A stretch of DNA of 64,000 bases from a phage. A program made the translations under genes and the position numbers. The DNA is taken from sequence record PX418922.1; one strand, 5' to 3'. Numbering within the stretch: position 1 is the stretch's first letter; the number at the start of each line of letters is the position of its first letter. The notes beneath the pieces were generated by a model, which searched no databases, was not told the origin of the DNA, and saw only the letters and a list, made by a program, of their open reading frames with translations. This document shows positions 3,143 through 58,970 of this stretch, piece by piece.

Positions 3143-5644
3143 ATGTCAACTACAATTACTAATTTACCCGAAACATCAAAAGTTAATGGTTCAGATTACC
3201 TGGTTTTAGATCAACCTGATAAAACTGTTAAAAGCACAGTTTCCAACTTTCTTACTGACACTGGGGTGGTTTTAGCCACCCAGTTGAAAGATACAGGTGG
3301 AGCAGATTTAATACAATCCTCAAATGGTAATACTGTTCAGGAAGAGTTGAATAACAATCTTCTTAATGATCGTGAACAGTGGCGTCGTAGTCTTGCTGAA
3401 GCGGGGTTAACACTTGTTGATGGTAGCTTTGAGGAGGGTGCTACATTAAATAATAATACTGATGCTGTTTGGTATATTGCAGGTGGACAGTGCTATACAT
3501 GGGGTGGTGCTTTCCCTAAAGAAGTTCCAGCTGGGTCAACCCCAGAAACATCTGGTGGCGTTGGTTCTGGGGCGTGGGTGAGCGTTGGTGATGCTAATTT
3601 AAGACAGGAATTAGCATCTTCATCTGGGTTTAAATTAATTGGTTCAGTATCTAATGTTACTCAATTAAGAACCATTACCGGTTCTGCTGGAGATAAAATA
3701 TTCCTCAAAGAATATAATACTGGTACCGGGAAAGGTGGGGGAATATTGACTGGTGTTAGCAGTCCGACACTGGTCGATGATGGCGTGAGCTTTTTCAGGG
3801 TTAACTCATCTTTTGGTTGGGCGCGAGATATATCTAAAGGTGTTAGCTTTTTTGATGGTGGTGTTATTGGTGATGCTGTTATTTCTGGTCCAAGTGTAAC
3901 TGGAACAGATGATACTGCCGCGGTTCTTCGCGTTTTTTCTGCCAGATTACCGATTAGGCAGAATACGCCGTTAAAAATGCGTCTAACGTCTTCTGTAACT
4001 TTAGGTAACGGTATTGTTGACTTGGTTGGTGCGGGGTCCACACATGTAGTATTTGTATTTGATCATTTGTCTGCCGGTTTAACTTTTGGCTCTGAGACTA
4101 ATTCGGAAACAAAATACCAGGGAACAGTGAAAGGCGTTTCTTGCGTTCGCCCTAACTACCTTGCATATGCTGGCTCAGCAGGTCCAAAATCTCTCTCATT
4201 TGGTAACTTCTCCCCTATTATTTTAGAAGACGTTAGAGAAGAAAACGCCATAGGATTTGGTATTTTCTTTGTATTCTGCCGGTCGGTCGTGGTTAGGAAA
4301 TGTTACGCCGGTAATCACGTCGGAACTTACTCTACCCCTAAATCTGGAACGGATGGCATCCATTTTTATAAATGTAACGACGTATGGGCCTACGATAATA
4401 TTTTAGAGGAAATCGGTGACGATGCGATATCATCAGGGTCATTTGATCCCCTGTTCCCTTGCTCAAATATAAACTTCATCAGGAATAAGATTTCAAGAGT
4501 GCACGGAAGTATGAAACTTTATAGTTTTGTGGACGGTGCGGAGATAGCCTATAACCGATTCCGCGTAGGTCATGAAGGAGGAGTTTATCTTACAAATGAT
4601 GCTAACTCTCTCGATAACTCTTATGTGAAGAATATAAAAATTCATCACAATGAGTTTTTTGATATTATTGGGAGTGAACCCAGTAATAACACATCTGGTG
4701 GCGTGCGTCTGAGATTCTGGCCTGATAATTCAGTACCAAATTCACGGGCAATTATAGACCAAATCTATATAACAGATAACCTAATTAGTGGCTGTGGCGC
4801 TGGCATTGCGGCAATAACACAGGATGCATACAAAAGATTTTCTAATATGTTCATTCGTAATAACTCGTTTCGTGCGGCACCACTCGATCTAACGGGTAGC
4901 AGGCCTTATATCCGCATACATCAATTTGATTATGAACTTGAGATTAGCGGAAATACAATGGTTAACTCGCATTCAGGGGGTATTGTTATAGATCAGGTCA
5001 ACGGCTCGGTTACCGCCACTTTTACGGCTCCAAAAGCTAAAATCAGCGGTAACACTATCGATGGGTACAGCCTGGCGTCAACGTTGGGCCAACTGGCAAA
5101 CGGTATTCTGGTTAGACCGTCTGATTACAATATCCTCTTAGAGATGGTAGGTAATCAGGTAAGGGGCCAGGCTATTAGTGATACCCTACCAGCAACACAA
5201 GGCATTTTGGTTAACAACGTTAGCCCACTGTCTTTTATTGAAGCAAACCAATCCGATAACAACATTGCTATCGGTGCAGGTTCTGCTGCCTATAAAGGTA
5301 TAGGTAAGACTAAGTTGGGAGCACCGAATGCTGGTACTCACTACGCTGGCAGTACCATTACTGATTATGTTGGTGGGAATCGTTACACTATCCTAACCAA
5401 CGGAACCTTTGGTACATTAAACGGTGTAACAGGTACTACTGTAGCCGGTAGTAAAACAGTTACTCTTAATAGCATAGCTGATGTGTATAGAGGTTGTGTT
5501 ATAGCTATAGCTGGTGTCTCTGGTAACAAACGTGTCTTGGATATACAAGGCACTACTATTAAGGTCGATGTAGCTTGTGACACTTCTGTATCAAACGGTG
5601 CAGTTAGCTACGTTGCCCCTACCTTTAGGACAGAAGCTATGTAA
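3143..5644 (+). CDS. tail fibre / tailspike-like protein
   Basis: 833-aa Gly/Ser/Thr/Asn-rich ORF; carries motif 'WYIAGGQCYTWGGAFPKEVPAGSTPETSGG..AWVSVG' (nt ~3464-3613) shared with two other fibre ORFs. Confidence 0.55.
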   Translation: MSTTITNLPETSKVNGSDYLVLDQPDKTVKSTVSNFLTDTGVVLATQLKDTGGADLIQSSNGNTVQEELNNNLLNDREQWRRSLAEAGLTLVDGSFEEGATLNNNTDAVWYIAGGQCYTWGGAFPKEVPAGSTPETSGGVGSGAWVSVGDANLRQELASSSGFKLIGSVSNVTQLRTITGSAGDKIFLKEYNTGTGKGGGILTGVSSPTLVDDGVSFFRVNSSFGWARDISKGVSFFDGGVIGDAVISGPSVTGTDDTAAVLRVFSARLPIRQNTPLKMRLTSSVTLGNGIVDLVGAGSTHVVFVFDHLSAGLTFGSETNSETKYQGTVKGVSCVRPNYLAYAGSAGPKSLSFGNFSPIILEDVREENAIGFGIFFVFCRSVVVRKCYAGNHVGTYSTPKSGTDGIHFYKCNDVWAYDNILEEIGDDAISSGSFDPLFPCSNINFIRNKISRVHGSMKLYSFVDGAEIAYNRFRVGHEGGVYLTNDANSLDNSYVKNIKIHHNEFFDIIGSEPSNNTSGGVRLRFWPDNSVPNSRAIIDQIYITDNLISGCGAGIAAITQDAYKRFSNMFIRNNSFRAAPLDLTGSRPYIRIHQFDYELEISGNTMVNSHSGGIVIDQVNGSVTATFTAPKAKISGNTIDGYSLASTLGQLANGILVRPSDYNILLEMVGNQVRGQAISDTLPATQGILVNNVSPLSFIEANQSDNNIAIGAGSAAYKGIGKTKLGAPNAGTHYAGSTITDYVGGNRYTILTNGTFGTLNGVTGTTVAGSKTVTLNSIADVYRGCVIAIAGVSGNKRVLDIQGTTIKVDVACDTSVSNGAVSYVAPTFRTEAM

Positions 5645-30412: not shown

Positions 30413-30711
30413 TCTACAGCATCATGAGTCCTTGCAAAACGCTCCCACAACACAGCATCTACTTTAAGAACCATACAAGGATAAATACTGTCGTTGATCA
30501 TGTCAATGCTATATTTATCTACATCCTTTTCATCTTCCATAAACAAAGTAGCGTATGCTTCTAAATGCTTACGGGTGTAGTATACATCCTCTTCAGTAAG
30601 ACCGACAACCAGGTAACTTGCTACAACAACAGTATTATCTTCTTGCATTTTAACTCCCCTTTGGTAGATAGAAACCATGCACTTTATCTCGATAAACAAG
30701 ACGCATATCAC
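30364..30711 (-). CDS. hypothetical protein
   Basis: 115-aa ORF. Confidence 0.35.
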   Translation of the reverse strand: MICVLFIEIKCMVSIYQRGVKMQEDNTVVVASYLVVGLTEEDVYYTRKHLEAYATLFMEDEKDVDKYSIDMINDSIYPCMVLKVDAVLWERFARTHDAVECSAVMSQNNILGEIH

Positions 30712-31171
30712 GTTCCCAGTGTGTTCTTATATTCCGTTTCTTGAAGTATAGAGCACCTTTAGTAACATCTAAAACAGACCGCAATTCAGGAAAATGTTTC
30801 TCTAAATAAAGTAAACGCTCCGCTATTGCTTTTGCTTCCTGCCACTTATCTTTCTCTGTTACGTTAAAAGTTTTCGCATATGAGAATTGCCCTTTCTGGA
30901 ACAAGACTCCTCTGACTGTGTTAGGGAAGTAGGTATCATTTCTTCTGTTGATTACCACATTCCCAACGGCATTCATTCCTTTTTTACCCAGACCGCGACC
31001 TTCTGCGTAAATTGCACAAGCTAATAGAATTTTATCATTATATTGCTTTGTACATTTGTGAACTACTTTAGCGGTTTTTACGTTTGCAGCTTCGGCTTTC
31101 GCCACAACAGGTGTAAATGTAAAAGCAGTTAAGGATAGTAACGCAACTGTTACAAAGTTTTTTATCAGCAA
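30650..31171 (-). CDS. cell wall hydrolase (SleB/CwlJ-like), candidate secreted endolysin
   Basis: N-terminal signal-like segment; 'LACAIYAEGRG...AVGNVVINR' matches SleB-type hydrolase motif. Confidence 0.6.
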   Translation of the reverse strand: MLIKNFVTVALLSLTAFTFTPVVAKAEAANVKTAKVVHKCTKQYNDKILLACAIYAEGRGLGKKGMNAVGNVVINRRNDTYFPNTVRGVLFQKGQFSYAKTFNVTEKDKWQEAKAIAERLLYLEKHFPELRSVLDVTKGALYFKKRNIRTHWERDMRLVYRDKVHGFYLPKGS

Positions 31172-31270
31172 ATTTTGCCTCCTTTTTAAGTTAACGAATT
31201 TCTAGTATAACACGATAGAGGCTTTATTGCAAGAGGGGGATTTCTCCCCCTCAAAATCATTTGTTAATTA

Positions 31271-31888: not shown

Positions 31889-32158
31889 TTATTTAAGTGT
31901 AATACCAGTTACAGTCAATTCTACTTCCAAAAGCTTAGATGTGTTTTGGATTGATACTAATTGTGCATGATGGTTTAGTTCTACAGCAGAATAATCATTT
32001 TCCCCATCATCTACTTTTAAATAAACAATGATTTCACTAAGGTCTAAACCATTTTCGTCAAATGCATTTTCATAGACGAAAGTATCTCCTACATCCAAAT
32101 CTTTAATGGTAAGGCATCGTTTATTTACTTTTTGCTCATCAATTTCGAAGTTTAACAC
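31889..32158 (-). CDS. hypothetical small protein (paralog of 33180-33458)
   Basis: 'DLDVGDTFVYENAFDENGLD...VELTVTGITLK' vs paralog 'DLDVGATFMYYDAYEDAGLD...VDLEVTNITLK'. Confidence 0.4.
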   Translation of the reverse strand: MLNFEIDEQKVNKRCLTIKDLDVGDTFVYENAFDENGLDLSEIIVYLKVDDGENDYSAVELNHHAQLVSIQNTSKLLEVELTVTGITLK

Positions 32159-32387
32159 TTCTTCCTCCTAATGTTATCTCCGGTTTGTATATACGAAGAA
32201 TTATAGCATTTTCATTTTCTTTGTCAACCCATTCTTCATAATCAGGCCATACATGAATCTCTACTCTACTTACAATATCTTCCATTCGCACAGTCCCAAT
32301 GAAATACTCTTTGAGACTGCGCATAATGAAAGCTTCTCTCTCGCGCCAATAATTTTCTATGACTTGAGAGGCAAGCTCGTCGATCAT
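32139..32387 (-). CDS. hypothetical protein
   Basis: 82-aa ORF. Confidence 0.35.
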   Translation of the reverse strand: MIDELASQVIENYWREREAFIMRSLKEYFIGTVRMEDIVSRVEIHVWPDYEEWVDKENENAIILRIYKPEITLGGRSVKLRN

Positions 32388-33178
32388 TTTTTAGCACCTA
32401 CTTTAACAACCCACTCTCCGAACTCTTCAGATAAGAGTTTGTCATAAAGCTCTGAATCTGTCAAGTCTAAATCTTTAATGCCAATAAAACCAACATTATC
32501 ATAAGCATTTGCCAGTTCTTTCAGGAAGCCAAACTTCTCATTACCAACACCAACCATGAACCAATAAATAGGTTTATTCTTATTCTCTTCGATAAGACGA
32601 CGAACAGCACTAGGATCACCATTCTCACCATCCGTCTGGAAGAATACAACACCAGGGGTAATGTCAGCACCTGGTTCAGATACAGCTACAACTTTTTCAC
32701 GCTCTACAGACACTGTTTCAGTTTTACCAAGCAGACGATTAAAGAAGCCTTTCTTTGGAGCCTCCTCTTGTACCACTTGTTTAGTGGTAATATATTTAGT
32801 AACAGTGCCAAAATACTCATCGTAGATATCCGCCATTACAGGGGCGTAATTTGTTCCACCTCCGATACGAACATTACGCATACATTTACCAACATAGTCA
32901 TCGTAAACATCTGCTGTTGCTGGAGTAAGCTCTTGGGAACTCGTATTGAAGGCCCACATATCAATTTGTTGATTATCGTCGAACAGCATACCAAAAGGAA
33001 GCAGTTTACCTACAAAATCACTCACTACCCCATTAGAATATAGACCATGCATACTACCAGAAATATCTAGAGCACATGCTACACGAAGAACAATCTTACC
33101 TTCATTCAGGTTCTTATTCTTTTTCAGAGAGAAAGCAAGGTTTTCTTGACGTTTTTTCAGGCTGATTTTCTCGGACAT
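32384..33178 (-). CDS. von Willebrand factor A domain protein (TerY-like)
   Basis: MIDAS motif 'DISGSM', 'FFQTDGENGD'; N-terminus 'MSEKISLKK' echoes TerD N-terminus. Confidence 0.6.
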   Translation of the reverse strand: MSEKISLKKRQENLAFSLKKNKNLNEGKIVLRVACALDISGSMHGLYSNGVVSDFVGKLLPFGMLFDDNQQIDMWAFNTSSQELTPATADVYDDYVGKCMRNVRIGGGTNYAPVMADIYDEYFGTVTKYITTKQVVQEEAPKKGFFNRLLGKTETVSVEREKVVAVSEPGADITPGVVFFQTDGENGDPSAVRRLIEENKNKPIYWFMVGVGNEKFGFLKELANAYDNVGFIGIKDLDLTDSELYDKLLSEEFGEWVVKVGAKK

Positions 33179-33179
33179 A

Positions 33180-33458
33180 TTATTTCTCCTTCTTAAGTGT
33201 AATATTGGTAACTTCTAAATCTACTTCCACCATATTTGTATCTGGTGGGATGCAATGAGTATAGCCTCGTTGTGCTAGTGATCCATTAATACAGATCGCA
33301 CTGTTTGTGGAATTTTTAATGAACACCAAGTTACGGTAGGTATCCAACCCTGCGTCTTCATAGGCATCATAATACATGAATGTGGCCCCTACGTCAAGAT
33401 CTTCGAAAGCAATAGGTAAATCCTGACTTTTTTCTTCTTGAATATTGAATCTAAACAC
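33180..33458 (-). CDS. hypothetical small protein (paralog of 31889-32158); start inferred at GTG
   Basis: Track ORF is 33180-33524; RBS 'gaggagg' sits 5 nt upstream of in-frame GTG at 33456-33458, giving a length matching the paralog. Confidence 0.35.
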   Translation of the reverse strand: MFRFNIQEEKSQDLPIAFEDLDVGATFMYYDAYEDAGLDTYRNLVFIKNSTNSAICINGSLAQRGYTHCIPPDTNMVEVDLEVTNITLKKEK

Positions 33459-34014
33459 GCATACCTCCTCTACCAATTTTGAAGCCCAAATCGTAAGCTT
33501 CCTTGGTGATCTTTTGTAACTCACTTATAGGAAGTGTTACAAGAGGATCATCTTCTTCAATTTCCATCTTATCATCTTCTGTTTCAATGAGAGTATTATG
33601 CACTTTGTGATAAGGGTTGTCAACACGTTTAAACTTATTCTTTTCTGTGCTGAAAAAACAATCTGGATCTTCTTCGCCATCACCCCAACCTTGGTTAGGA
33701 TCTCCGTCAGATTGTTCTGTAGGGATTTCACCTGTAAAGTACTCTTCCAGCACCATAGCGATACCGTCCCTTGGATTTGAGGAATGCATCAAATCACAAA
33801 CCTTACCCCAATCCATAGCCCATTCGAACCGTTCACGAACGCCGTTTTCATCCTCCTTTCCAGAGAAAACACAACCATAACTATCATAGTTGCCATACAT
33901 CTCTTCAATAACAACACCGTCCTTCAAAAGAAAGAGATAACAAGGTGATCCGTCGAAAGAAGTAGAAAGGGCAGCTTTGCCCGATTCTTTGCACAAAAAG
34001 CTAAAACAACCCAT
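33451..34014 (-). CDS. hypothetical acidic protein
   Basis: 187-aa ORF. Confidence 0.4.
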   Translation of the reverse strand: MGCFSFLCKESGKAALSTSFDGSPCYLFLLKDGVVIEEMYGNYDSYGCVFSGKEDENGVRERFEWAMDWGKVCDLMHSSNPRDGIAMVLEEYFTGEIPTEQSDGDPNQGWGDGEEDPDCFFSTEKNKFKRVDNPYHKVHNTLIETEDDKMEIEEDDPLVTLPISELQKITKEAYDLGFKIGRGGMRV

Positions 34015-34578: not shown

Positions 34579-34775
34579 TACTCCTCCTCCTCATTGAAGT
34601 CAATATCTGCAAGGAGTTCGAATTTACGGAAGTTACGACAACCTTCATAAATATAACAATCACGACAAACTGCTAGAACACTTGGGGGATATATACCTCC
34701 CATCGGTGCGAATCGTTTTTCGTCATCATAACGGACACCAATGTCTTCATCAATTATATAGATACGGATTCTCAT
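34578..34775 (-). CDS. hypothetical small protein
   Basis: 65-aa ORF. Confidence 0.3.
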   Translation of the reverse strand: MRIRIYIIDEDIGVRYDDEKRFAPMGGIYPPSVLAVCRDCYIYEGCRNFRKFELLADIDFNEEEE

Positions 34776-35884
34776 TTACCAAGCCCTCGTTTCACAGCAG
34801 CTACCATCCCGTCTTCCAGAGATTGAACTTCATTAATATAATCAACACGAGCAGCACGGGCTTCCGTATTGATGCGGTTAGTTTCTTCCAACATCTTAAC
34901 CAAGTTTTCCTGATCGTGACGCAGAGTTTCAATATCCAACACTTGACGGTTAGCCAGTGCTGCTGCTTCGATCTGATTCTGTGTGGCAAGATCGCTACCC
35001 AGTTTAATTGCCAGGTTAAATTCATCAAGAACGTTATTCTGCGTCTCTGCTGCTTTCATTTGACGTAAGCTCTCGATATACATTGAGAAGTTAGCAGAGT
35101 AAGCAGGAATAACATTATTTACTATGTTACGCGCAGATCGCATTAAGCTTGCAGAAACTTTTTGCATACCTTGTACACGCGGTCCCATTTGGACACACAG
35201 TAGGCGCAATGCTTTTAAATCTGCAATACGAATCTCCAGAAGATCCAAAGTATCTCGGATCACTTGTCGCTGTTCTACTGCATCTTCTGGAAGAGCAGCC
35301 AAAGCTTGTTCTTCTTTTTCATAGGTTGTTGTTAGAAGCTGCATATCTCGGTTCAAACTTGCAGCATATTGTCCAATAGCTTGATGTAGCTTTTCAAGAT
35401 ATACCAAAGAATCTTCTTCTTTGCGAATATCCATTTGAAGGTTCTTTACCAACTCTTCAATACGGTTATTAACATTATCAAACTCCCCAAACAGGTCTTC
35501 TTTCATACCCATAACTTTTTTAATGAGTTTAGTAATACCCTTGCTTTGTTTAATAGAGTTTGGATCAAGTTGTTTTGCCTGTTTAATCAAAGCTGTGAGT
35601 CGTTCACTCATCTGATCGCCTTGATTACTACGTTGATGTTTTAATACCTCGGCATTCAAGGAACGCAAGGTTGTTCCTGCCTCTGCCCCAATCTCTTCGA
35701 TCTCTTGTCGGGTCATAGAAGGCAAAACTGGAACTTCTTGCGGTGCGGCTGGTGCATAAACAGGACTGGCATCTAACACGCTTGGAGCGAATACAGATTT
35801 ACTTGCATCTGTTGTTGCAGCAAATACGCTCATTTCAGGCTTCTTCTGACCGCCAGTAGCTGCTTTTAAAAATGGACTTGTCAT
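34772..35884 (-). CDS. TelA-like (toxic anion resistance family) coiled-coil protein
   Basis: 370-aa largely helical ORF of TelA-like size, located between TerD/vWA and TerC genes; assignment mainly contextual. Confidence 0.45.
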   Translation of the reverse strand: MTSPFLKAATGGQKKPEMSVFAATTDASKSVFAPSVLDASPVYAPAAPQEVPVLPSMTRQEIEEIGAEAGTTLRSLNAEVLKHQRSNQGDQMSERLTALIKQAKQLDPNSIKQSKGITKLIKKVMGMKEDLFGEFDNVNNRIEELVKNLQMDIRKEEDSLVYLEKLHQAIGQYAASLNRDMQLLTTTYEKEEQALAALPEDAVEQRQVIRDTLDLLEIRIADLKALRLLCVQMGPRVQGMQKVSASLMRSARNIVNNVIPAYSANFSMYIESLRQMKAAETQNNVLDEFNLAIKLGSDLATQNQIEAAALANRQVLDIETLRHDQENLVKMLEETNRINTEARAARVDYINEVQSLEDGMVAAVKRGLGK

Positions 35885-36471
35885 TCTTCATTCTCCTCTT
35901 CTGCATCTCTTATATATGGTGAAACACCGTACTCTTTAGCTACTTTAACCCAATCGTCCCATTTATACAACCATAATTTTCCTTCGGTCCCTTCTTTATC
36001 TGATTTCAACCACATATTAGGTTGCTTACCCGGGTACATGCGATTAGGTTTACGATTATAACCTCTAACACATCTTGTCGCAAACCTATCTACCAGAACA
36101 AGAACATATTTATACTCGTGGTTCAACGGCTCTTTGGAAGTGGCTTTAGGATTAGCCCCTAATTCTGCTGCCAGTTTTTGCCAATGAGCACCGTGCCTAC
36201 TAAACTTACCCATACAACCATCAATAGCATGAGCAATTTCGTGCTTCATTGTATCCACGATCATATCTCTTGTGGAGTTCTTATGCAAGTGCCAATTTAC
36301 AACAACAATTTTATCTCGGTAGTTGCACCAACCGAAAGAGTTATTCACTTTGTTTCTAACACAAGCTTTATATCCTGCTTCACGTAACATGTTGTAGTAA
36401 ACAGGAAAATCTTCTTTTATTTCCTGCATCACTTCCCACCACAAGAGTTGCAAGTCTCTCTCGGTATGCAT
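35881..36471 (-). CDS. SprT-like zinc metallopeptidase-like protein
   Basis: 'MKHEIAHAIDG...RHGAHW' HExxH motif in SprT-like context. Confidence 0.45.
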   Translation of the reverse strand: MHTERDLQLLWWEVMQEIKEDFPVYYNMLREAGYKACVRNKVNNSFGWCNYRDKIVVVNWHLHKNSTRDMIVDTMKHEIAHAIDGCMGKFSRHGAHWQKLAAELGANPKATSKEPLNHEYKYVLVLVDRFATRCVRGYNRKPNRMYPGKQPNMWLKSDKEGTEGKLWLYKWDDWVKVAKEYGVSPYIRDAEEENEE

Positions 36472-38096: not shown

Positions 38097-39071
38097 TTAA
38101 ACAGCAGCTTCTTCTTTTTCAGGGAAGATAAAGCTTGCAATAACACCAAGAGCTAATGTGCCTAGAACAATCATCAGACTTACGTTAGGGGAAATATCAT
38201 GCGGGAGGAATGACCACTTGGCATGAAGTGTTTCACCGAACGGGTGATACATAAGTTTAGCACCGACAAATACCAGAACCACAGCAACAGCTTTCTCTAA
38301 GTGAACCAGATATTTCACAGCTACACTTAACACAAAGAAAAGTGCACGTAAACCAAGAACAGCCATCAGCATTGCAGAATAAACTAGCAGAGGTTCTTGT
38401 GTCACACCGATCACAGCCGGAACTGAATCAAAAGAGAAGACAATATCTGTAAGCTCAATAACAAACACACAAAGAAGAGCAGGAGTTGCATATTTAATAC
38501 CATTCTTAATGGTGATGAACTTTTCACCATCCAGTGCATTGTGCACAGGCAGAACTTTACCTACTAAACGAACAGCCCAATGCTTAGAGTAATCAATATC
38601 CTCTTCTTCGTCACCACCTTTGATGATAGCCACGGCAGACCAAGCTACAATCAAACCGAACAACACTTGGACCGACCAATGAAGGTTAAACAAAGCGGTC
38701 CCTGCTGCAACAAAAATACCTCGGAAGACAATGGCTCCTGCAATTCCCCAAAGTAAAATCTTATGTTGGAGATGTGTGCTCTTAATTCCAAAGCTTGCAA
38801 AAATTGCCATGAACACCATCAGGTTATCTACAGAAAGACTCTTTTCCAACACATAGCCACTTAGGAAAAGCGCGGCAAACTCTTTACCATGTTCTACCCA
38901 AATGAATGCGTAATATCCTAAAGCTAAAGCAATCCAAAAAACAGACCAAAGCAAAGCAGATTTAATTCCAATTTCTTTATTCTCTTTATGACCAAAGAAA
39001 TCAATACCAATAGACAATGCTAAAATACCAACTAAAACAACTACATCAATAATGGGGAAACCAAGTTGCAT
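38097..39071 (-). CDS. terC: TerC-family integral membrane protein
   Basis: multi-TM ORF with 'EKSLSVDNLMVF' and 'FSFDSVPAVIGVT' motifs characteristic of TerC/Alx family. Confidence 0.7.
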   Translation of the reverse strand: MQLGFPIIDVVVLVGILALSIGIDFFGHKENKEIGIKSALLWSVFWIALALGYYAFIWVEHGKEFAALFLSGYVLEKSLSVDNLMVFMAIFASFGIKSTHLQHKILLWGIAGAIVFRGIFVAAGTALFNLHWSVQVLFGLIVAWSAVAIIKGGDEEEDIDYSKHWAVRLVGKVLPVHNALDGEKFITIKNGIKYATPALLCVFVIELTDIVFSFDSVPAVIGVTQEPLLVYSAMLMAVLGLRALFFVLSVAVKYLVHLEKAVAVVLVFVGAKLMYHPFGETLHAKWSFLPHDISPNVSLMIVLGTLALGVIASFIFPEKEEAAV

Positions 39072-39387: not shown

Positions 39388-39861
39388 TTAAAGTTTATAA
39401 ATAGTCACATCGTGACCTGTTTTTACTAAAGTTTCTTCAATCATCACTTCAATGATAGCCCAATTACCTCCTGCCAACCCTGCTCCAATCATAGGTAAGC
39501 CGATCTTACATTTTTGGTCACGGAGAAGCAAATCATTAGCCATAGCTATTAGTGCATCGTACAAGGCATCATAGTCCAACTGACGACCTTTAGCATTGTA
39601 TCCATAACGATACTGCCCGTATAGATTATATACCAAAGGATCTGATTGTTCGTCTGGCACCCCTAAACTAAAACAACCTAGTTTACTTTGATCACCAGCC
39701 ATTGTGTCTAAATCTGCCGCATATGCATAAGGGAATGCTCGTTTAATTTGCGGAGCAATTCCTGCTCCCATATTACACATACAATTGCAACAATGAGCAA
39801 TAACAGTTACTTCACCTGCTTTAGCGGCATCGATAAGATTACCTGTTTTCATTTTAAGCAT
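39388..39861 (-). CDS. macro-domain-like protein (ADP-ribose binding/processing)
   Basis: 'GNLIDAAKAGEVTVIAHCCNCMCNMGAGIAPQI' and 'IGLPMIGAGLAGG' resemble macro domain motifs; start moved to internal ATG with RBS 'aaggag' (track: 39388-39927). Confidence 0.4.
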   Translation of the reverse strand: MLKMKTGNLIDAAKAGEVTVIAHCCNCMCNMGAGIAPQIKRAFPYAYAADLDTMAGDQSKLGCFSLGVPDEQSDPLVYNLYGQYRYGYNAKGRQLDYDALYDALIAMANDLLLRDQKCKIGLPMIGAGLAGGNWAIIEVMIEETLVKTGHDVTIYKL

Positions 39862-39874
39862 TTTTAGCTCCTTA

Positions 39875-40702
39875 TTACAGAATGTGTTGTTTTGTGTAAC
39901 GATCCAAGAATTCAAAGTTTTCAGCATACTTTGAAATTCGGTTGTAACCTTCTCCCAAACATCCGAAGAAAAGTTGCTCTACATAGTAGTGTGGCAATTG
40001 GCTAAGAATGATTTTGAAGTCTTCGTGATTTTGGCCCATAAGATACTTAATAGGACGAACAAGACACTGTGCATCACGTTCTTCATTAATCATTTTAACA
40101 AAAGCTTCTGGTGTATTAATATAATTAAAATTCAGTTTAGCTTCGGTATCTGCTTGATTACCTTCATATTTTGCAAAATACAGGAAGTAAACATCATTTT
40201 TAACTTGATTTTCATCAAGGATCTCAATCAGTTTGTCTTCGTGCGTTCCAGTGATATTTACATCATCAATGAATACAAGCTTCTTATCACCCCAGAATTC
40301 TTTGTTGCAGTAGAATGTATCCCCATCAATAAGTTTCTTACGACTAGCTTTATCCAAGAAGCCATAATCATTAATATAGCTAACTTTACGATGAATAATA
40401 TCCAGTTCTGCTGAACGACCTTGATCATATTGTGCTTGCAACATATTAAAGTAATTAATAAAATGATCTGTCATCATTGTGGCAGCATTATGCACATGGT
40501 TGTAAGGAGAAGGAATGATAACAAATTGTTCCCCAATATGTTTCATTGCCACTTGAGCAAAAAACTGAAGTGCCAATTCTTTACCCATACGACGCGCGGC
40601 TTGGTTACTACCAAATTTCAATTTTGAATAATCTTGGATATCAAAAGTAGCAGTTTCCAGGTCATCAAATTTATTTGCAAAAATTTGAGTTTGATTACGC
40701 AT
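39875..40702 (-). CDS. phosphoribosyltransferase-domain protein
   Basis: 'KLVFIDDVNITGTHE' matches PRPP-binding motif of type I PRTases. Confidence 0.45.
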   Translation of the reverse strand: MRNQTQIFANKFDDLETATFDIQDYSKLKFGSNQAARRMGKELALQFFAQVAMKHIGEQFVIIPSPYNHVHNAATMMTDHFINYFNMLQAQYDQGRSAELDIIHRKVSYINDYGFLDKASRKKLIDGDTFYCNKEFWGDKKLVFIDDVNITGTHEDKLIEILDENQVKNDVYFLYFAKYEGNQADTEAKLNFNYINTPEAFVKMINEERDAQCLVRPIKYLMGQNHEDFKIILSQLPHYYVEQLFFGCLGEGYNRISKYAENFEFLDRYTKQHIL

Positions 40703-58781: not shown

Positions 58782-58970
58782 ATGGCACGTTTAGCAGATA
58801 ACCCTGTATTCTACCCCGTTCTTGATCTTTATGATGAATTGACATATGTTGTGGAGCGGTATAATTACAATGAAGACCTCTTGGAGACAAACCTTAAAGT
58901 AGTTCTGATGAAAGCCTATCAGCAAGGGCAACGTGAAATTTTGGAGAGTATGAAAAATGCGAATAACTGA
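58782..58970 (+). CDS. hypothetical small protein
   Basis: start moved to ATG after RBS 'aaaggagaaact' (track 58746). Confidence 0.4.
   Translation: MARLADNPVFYPVLDLYDELTYVVERYNYNEDLLETNLKVVLMKAYQQGQREILESMKNANN

Follow-up and report, generated by a model that had tools for sequence, protein, structure and literature searches.

We analysed the tellurite-resistance-like (Ter) module of a phage in a 64,000-nucleotide stretch of its DNA (sequence record PX418922.1; hereafter the window), in which two small genes, small1 and small2, encode related proteins of about 90 amino acids. All Ter-region genes here lie on the minus strand, so that each small open reading frame (ORF) sits upstream of a larger gene that starts with an 'ISLKK' motif: small2 precedes the gene for a TerF-like protein with a vWA domain, and small1 precedes the gene for a TerD-domain protein. 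The explanation that we favour on balance is that the small proteins form a lineage-specific family within the Ter module, that the small gene alone was duplicated, and that its product would have an accessory role. The order of transcription is the 187-aa gene, small2, the vWA-TerF-like gene, orf82, small1, TerD, and the cell-wall hydrolase gene (Table 1). A preliminary description of this DNA had placed a small ORF after each ISLKK gene and had seen repeated pairs of adjacent genes in this arrangement. On the minus strand the small ORF precedes its ISLKK gene, and orf82 separates vWA from small1. Between positions 31200 and 34100 the window shares 99% identity with E. coli myoviruses of the phAPEC8-like group, among them PNJ1809-36, tuntematon, and ESCO13 (Phapecoctavirus, Stephanstirmvirinae).

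Paralogy, coding status and modelled fold of the small proteins

The earlier proposal that the two small ORFs are paralogous was borne out by pairwise alignment. BLASTP aligned their products over the full length with 34% identity (49.3 bits, E 2e-14), and the Smith-Waterman score was 123, compared with 26.6 +/- 5.1 (maximum 63) for 5000 shuffles, which corresponds to z = 19. The motifs DLDVG.TF.Y..A..GLD and VEL.VT.ITLK, on which the proposal had been based, are present in the alignment. Both proteins matched the same PHROG profile, phrog_11278, small1 with an E value of 7e-45 (residues 1-89 of the 92-position profile) and small2 with one of 4.2e-51 (1-92 of 92), and a hidden Markov model (HMM) of the family found no copies other than these two in the 64-kb window. 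Since both are full-length members of PHROG 11278, their paralogy was already implicit in public clustering; the entry gives no function and no context, and makes no mention of two members per genome beside vWA and TerD. Searches of Pfam, NCBIfam, PADLOC, and PDB sequences with the small proteins returned no significant match. The possibility that the small protein derives from TerD or vWA as a degenerate fragment was rejected on hhalign probabilities of 0.8% and 0.2%, respectively.

The GTG start that had been suggested for small2 behind a strong ribosome-binding site also stood, with GAGGAGG 6 nt upstream. In small2 homologs from other phages, ATG is found at the aligned start residue. The start of small1, overlooked in the preliminary description, is likewise a GTG behind AGGAGG and 5 nt, and both genes are annotated with the same coordinates in ESCO13 and SF1-1. 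GTG starts on both ORFs would fit the view that they are untranslated, either chance ORFs or regulatory leader regions. In the relatives, however, the ORF has stayed 87-93 aa long behind a Shine-Dalgarno site and mostly begins with ATG at the corresponding residue, and a profile search retrieved about 20 members of 87-93 aa among 1.84 billion proteins. A confident fold was also predicted for small2, as described below. The ratio of dN to dS was 0.155 for small2 between the window and ECO340P2, and 0.108 and 0.128 for the copies upstream of vWA (UP, corresponding to small2) and between vWA and TerD (MID, corresponding to small1), respectively, between phiWec186 and PsgM04F. For small1, the comparison of the window with ECO340P2 was based on 4 substitutions and is uninformative. 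Where there were enough substitutions, the ratios of 0.11-0.16 confirmed at the level of sequence that small1 and small2 are real coding genes under purifying selection, and we consider it extremely improbable that they are untranslated.

Among close phages, small2 diverged more than the genes around it. Compared with the copy at 1207-1479 of one related locus (L089), it showed a dS of 0.37 and 89% amino acid identity, while neighbouring genes showed a dS of 0.04-0.16 and 97-99% identity. This higher divergence suggests that the UP copy has either undergone local recombination or evolved faster.

The AlphaFold2 (AF2) model of small2, calculated from a 14-sequence alignment, had a pLDDT of 84.8 and a pTM of 0.75, and consisted of about 5 strands and a short helix. 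The protein is tentatively modelled as an SH3-like small beta-barrel, the type to which FeoA, KOW, EF-P domain I, the SH3-like domain of ribosomal protein L2, and HspQ belong. The top structural match of the model in BFVD was the phAPEC8 ortholog of small1 (TM 0.80-0.83, 34% identity), which indicates that the two paralogs share a predicted fold.

Duplication of the small gene, and the N-terminal segment that TerD and vWA share

We compared the position and number of small genes in related genomes. In ten divergent metagenomic loci (L007-L016) the order is vWA-TerF-like, small, TerD, Hydrolase_2, with a single position for the small gene between the two large ones (MID). Two of these loci, L008 and L009, are near-identical, so that the ten represent nine distinct gene neighbourhoods, and their vWA proteins are 46-63% identical to that of the window where aligned. 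In phi92 (Justusliebigvirus) and Klebsiella phage 05F01 a single copy is found in the UP position, in the order small, vWA, TerD, with no orf82. The two-copy arrangement, UP-small, vWA, orf80-82, MID-small, TerD, occurs in the window, ESCO13, SF1-1, ECO340P2, phiWec186, PsgM04F, and the divergent contig SRR10902858_632. Every single-copy genome has both vWA and TerD. The small gene alone varies in copy number, which argues that only the small gene was duplicated.

One of the metagenomic loci, L015, carries two tandem members of the small family between vWA and TerD (5001-5546), and this pair is an independent duplication of the small gene. The 82-aa ORF is confined to the two-copy lineage, shows a dN/dS of 0.12-0.13, and houses the candidate promoter for small1 and TerD. 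It was considered as a remnant of the 187-aa gene, in which case the duplicated unit would have been the 187-aa gene plus small, and this was rejected because no similarity was found (E 0.055).

In the tree built by neighbour joining, one clade (74% bootstrap) held the UP copies, with those of phi92 and 05F01 among them, and another (73.5% bootstrap) the Phapecoctavirus-type MID copies. We infer that the MID position is the ancestral one, and that the subfamily's ancestor would have gained its UP copy by a single duplication. The MID copy would later have been lost in phages of the phi92 and 05F01 types. Genomes of the Phapecoctavirus type have kept both copies, with the 82-aa ORF inserted between vWA and the downstream copy. 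We regard this evolutionary and anatomical account, taken as a whole, as very probable.

Two other histories have to be weighed against it. If the ancestor already had the order small, vWA, small, TerD, the single-copy genomes would have arisen by loss and the UP copy would be no late derivative. Such a history fits the separate clades of UP and MID copies, which are only 34% identical within one genome, as well as the poor support for the deep nodes of the tree, and it shares with our account the need for MID loss in phi92 and 05F01. The ten most divergent loci, however, are all MID only and none has a UP copy. Two ancient copies would therefore require several independent losses of the same copy, and we consider them unlikely. 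The preliminary description, on the other hand, had taken the duplicated unit to be an ISLKK gene together with a small gene, the large gene having then diverged into TerD and vWA. The observation behind this proposal was correct: both large genes start with MxxKISLKK, and a second hSLKK follows a few residues on. When the N-termini were compared, the TerD and vWA profiles were aligned by hhalign with 89% probability (E 2.3e-6) over about 50 residues, through hSLKK, hSLKK, a hydrophobic strand, and then LD.S. At the DNA level, blastn matched 83 nt at the two small/ISLKK junctions (70% identity, E 6e-6), comprising the 3' end of the small gene, the ribosome-binding site, and the first 9 codons downstream.

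Past residue 50 or so, however, the two large proteins fall to different Pfam domains and resemble each other no further. The TerD gene product matched PF02342 (98.9 bits against a cut-off of 25.3, residues 5-179) and the solved structures 2KXT (E 1.5e-15, aligned from residue 5) and 3IBZ (E 2.9e-14) of this beta-sandwich family. For the vWA protein, which the preliminary description had counted among TerD/TerY-type proteins, the best Pfam match was PF10138, the TerF-C type (130.7 bits against a cut-off of 29.4), the generic VWA family PF00092 being below threshold (19.2 against 23.8 bits). Its MIDAS residues, DxSxS...T...D (D38, S40, S42, T109, and D183), were invariant in 8 divergent phage vWA sequences. 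The N-terminal motif itself is also found in bacterial proteins and on TerD proteins that have no small gene upstream. The hSLKK double motif of TerD aligned to residues 3-20 of 2KXT, VSLSKGG-NVSLSK of Klebsiella TerD. In vWA-TerF-like proteins of Burkholderia, Cupriavidus, Gallionellaceae, Bacteroidota, Saccharibacteria, and Lachnospiraceae, the MIDAS strand comes after two or three hxLxK repeats, and actinobacterial and gammaproteobacterial fusions of TerD and vWA carry such repeats between the two domains. The TerD of phi92 and of Klebsiella phage 05F01 keeps the motif though no small gene lies upstream of it. The serine codons of the two ISLKK motifs differ (TCC and AGC), which speaks against a recent copy at the DNA level, and the 83-nt similarity is limited to protein-constrained segments and was for this reason not taken as a duplication boundary. 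The shared hSLKK-x-hSLKK segment is an ancient trait of both families and not the trace of a local duplication. It may be a common docking or assembly element; a single-sequence AF2 model of vWA, made with a view to the role of the N-terminal motif, had a pLDDT of 38.5 and was unusable. Single-copy genomes already possess both large genes, as described above. Duplication of the two-gene unit is thus very improbable, and the repeated layout that had been noticed is an organisational parallel, not a duplicated two-gene block.

Candidate promoters and the surrounding Ter module

What is new in this analysis is that each small copy lies behind a conserved, sigma-70-like candidate promoter. The putative promoter of small1 agrees with the consensus at 12/12 hexamer positions and has the TG extension; 2 perfect consensus matches were found in 64 kb, where 0.11 would be expected. 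This motif is conserved in ESCO13, SF1-1, phiWec186, PsgM04F, and SRR10902858_632, and in the last three its hexamers are invariant while nearby synonymous sites vary. The motif upstream of small2 is present at the same site in phi92, PsgM04F, ESCO13, and SF1-1. In phiWec186, a related TTGACA-17-GATAAT lies in an intergenic gap, 31 nt before the ATG of the UP small gene. Each small gene of the two-copy genomes is therefore the first gene behind a conserved sigma-70-like motif. The second perfect match in the window, TTGACA-N15-TATAAT at 58839-58865, is on the plus strand, opposite to the Ter genes.

Downstream of TerD, a 68-nt stretch with a G+C-rich hairpin folded with a minimum free energy (MFE) of -18.5 kcal/mol (z -3.2). 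This hairpin could be a terminator that closes the small1-TerD unit, though it is without a T tract. A weak promoter-like site was seen between the hairpin and the hydrolase gene. Altogether, the two-copy genomes look like two parallel layouts, promoter-small2-vWA(-orf82) and promoter-small1-TerD-hairpin.

Table 1. Coordinates of genes and other elements of the Ter module in the window
Feature	Position	Strand	Remarks
187-aa gene	33451..34014	-	phrog_14928; directly upstream of small2, 8-nt overlap; conserved in phi92 (gp175)
small2 (UP copy), 92 aa	33180..33458	-	GTG start 6 nt after GAGGAGG; stop 1 nt before vWA ATG
TerF-C-type vWA protein, 264 aa	32384..33178	-	N-terminal KISLKK...FSLKK, then MIDAS motif LDISGSM
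orf82, 82 aa	32139..32387	-	phrog_22387; overlaps the vWA stop (ATGA) and the small1 start
small1 (MID copy), 89 aa	31889..32158	-	GTG start 5 nt after AGGAGG
TerD-domain protein, 200 aa	31271..31873	-	N-terminus KISLKKGSSEKISLKK, the canonical TerD start
Cell-wall hydrolase	30650-31171	-	last in transcription order, after TerD
TelA	34772-35884	-	upstream of the 187-aa gene in the module
SprT-like metallopeptidase	35881-36471	-	adjoins TelA
TerC	38097-39071	-	upstream part of the module
PRTase and phosphatase	39388-40702	-	named from related records (SF1-1 annotation, Pfam tags on a related locus)
Putative sigma-70 promoter with extended -10, TTGACA-16-TGcTATAAT	32200..32227	-	inside orf82, ends 41 nt upstream of small1 GTG
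Putative near-consensus sigma-70 promoter, TTGACA-17-CATAAT	33595..33623	-	inside the 187-aa gene, ends 136 nt upstream of small2
G+C-rich hairpin, GAGGGGGA-GAAA-TCCCCCTC	31231..31250	-	directly after the TerD stop; no T tract

The region belongs with the Ter modules that earlier work has treated in phages (PMC7824862, PMC8386662). Its PRTase, phosphatase, and SprT-like genes resemble those of fuller Ter systems with an arm for the synthesis of nucleotide derivatives. The 187-aa gene product showed no detectable family beyond phrog_14928. In phage WPEC2 (locus L088, 2781-4462), the annotation splits the vWA gene downstream of small2 into a 186-aa fragment and several tiny ORFs, which could reflect a frameshifted assembly or a disrupted gene. 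Records MG065650.1, OP562383.1, and OR584014.1 are about 99% identical to this region and their labels include Campylobacter phage B15 and Acinetobacter phage ABPW7; a contig of a metagenome-assembled genome labelled 'Proteobacteria bacterium' (L017) likewise matches the region of this E. coli phage at about 99% identity. Pseudomonas phage PsgM04F is also Phapecoctavirus-like. Such host and bin labels look doubtful.

Distribution and possible role of the small proteins

An exhaustive HMMER scan of 1.84 billion representative sequences gave 26 matches, about 20 of which were proteins of the small family. Large proteins with Ig, HYR, or DUF11 repeats among the matches, each with many short matched stretches, were rejected as artefacts of repeats or composition. 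In the phage collection, the small family was found in 127 records, essentially all with names and genome sizes of the Stephanstirmvirinae type, and vWA in 213 records, including those of Caulobacter, Brevundimonas, Pseudomonas, Rhizobium, Xanthomonas, and Acinetobacter phages. No member of the family was detected at E <= 10 in 68 bacterial vWA-TerF-like loci, and none in the Ter loci of three other phages, CcrColossus, Cygsa01, and vB_AciJM_313. Every lineage with the family, 16 distinct genome types or contigs in number, shows tight linkage of the small gene to the vWA/TerD pair. The preliminary description had hinted at a conserved partner protein for TerD/TerY-type proteins. Within this phage group, the tight linkage makes such a partner a reasonable proposal. 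As a general partner it did not hold, since its absence from the bacterial loci and from the other phage modules examined points to a lineage-specific occupant of this slot.

We hypothesized that the vWA/TerD pair has in the small protein a phage-specific accessory subunit or adaptor, which would be made together with its downstream partner. The gene spacing is tight, with an 8-nt overlap between small2 and the gene upstream, a 1-nt gap between small2 and vWA, and a 15-nt spacer with GAGGAG inside between small1 and the TerD ATG; the abutting and overlapping starts and stops suggest translational coupling. Beside this spacing, the linkage has survived divergence of vWA to below 50% identity, and in 4/4 variants with a duplicated or relocated copy that copy again lies beside vWA or TerD. 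These three features are what suggests an accessory role. The module would further be split into two promoter-driven units, each of which kept its own small copy, and such a split would explain why both copies were retained. For the module as a whole, a role at the membrane of the infected host is probable, for example in excluding superinfecting phages or in protection from stress, in line with the roles proposed for phage Ter systems, namely membrane-associated stress protection or superinfection exclusion (PMC7824862).

Several points weigh against this interpretation. The deep nodes of the small-protein tree had bootstrap values of 14-29%, which makes the direction of the duplication, with MID ancestral and UP derived, a parsimony argument. 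Other phage and bacterial Ter modules work without the small protein, so that the function of vWA and TerD does not in general depend on it. Both candidate promoters lie within coding sequence in the window, and part of their conservation could thus be protein constraint. The evidence for an accessory role consists of conserved adjacency and tight gene spacing. The small proteins might instead be functionally unrelated to Ter, for example host-takeover or anti-defence proteins whose genes are merely co-transcribed in this slot. This would agree with the lack of homologs in the bacterial Ter loci and the other phage Ter modules examined, with the generic fold, and with the variability of small2 among close phages, which is what one would expect of a host-interaction gene. 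A passenger gene would not, however, readily account for a place beside vWA or TerD that is held as vWA diverges to 46-49% identity and the small ORFs on the flanks come and go, nor for the overlapping or abutting starts and stops and the return of every duplicated or relocated copy to this pair. We therefore judge an unrelated function to be quite unlikely, and we propose the role as an accessory subunit of the vWA/TerD pair as a tentative possibility, at somewhat less than even probability.

A more specific form of this role can be imagined. Short linear peptides are often bound by SH3-like barrels, and the small SH3-like proteins might be dedicated adaptors that bind the shared hSLKK-x-hSLKK segment and take over a bridging role that the DUF475/TerC-like membrane protein may have in canonical hubs; in two-copy phages, one paralog would have specialised for vWA and the other for TerD. 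We regard this as improbable speculation.

Ter clusters occur widely, in bacteria, on plasmids, and in large phages. Anantharaman, Iyer and Aravind reportedly described in 2012 a Ter 'hub' that consists of TelA, a TerF-type vWA protein, a DUF475/TerC-like membrane protein, and TerD. As in the hub of bacteria and large phages, genes of the TelA, vWA-TerF-like, TerD, and TerC families lie together on one strand here, with vWA before TerD and the hxLxK double motif on both. In Burkholderia, CcrColossus, and Cygsa01 the order is TelA, vWA, DUF475/TerC-like membrane protein, TerD, whereas in the window TerC is encoded some 5 kb further upstream and a soluble protein of about 90 aa, not found in those systems, occupies the place between vWA and TerD. 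This small protein is duplicated and has separate candidate promoters. The TerF of E. coli and Klebsiella is a TerD domain fused to a C-terminal vWA domain, so that the same vWA subtype is functionally linked to TerD there as here; in this phage, by contrast, TerD and vWA come as two proteins, and a third, small one is encoded next to them.

The genes are otherwise ordinary hypothetical genes that over 100 phage genomes already have annotated and that PHROGs already groups in one cluster, and the small gene family is a modest, lineage-specific addition to a known module. The comparison shows that the hSLKK double motif is general to TerD and TerF-type vWA proteins. If the small proteins do act as adaptors of the shared segment, this would explain why the same N-terminal segment is found on two unrelated domains, and it would give a first handle on how the components of the Ter hub assemble. 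The small soluble protein, retained by one phage lineage at vWA/TerD, offers a cheap experimental entry point to Ter clusters.

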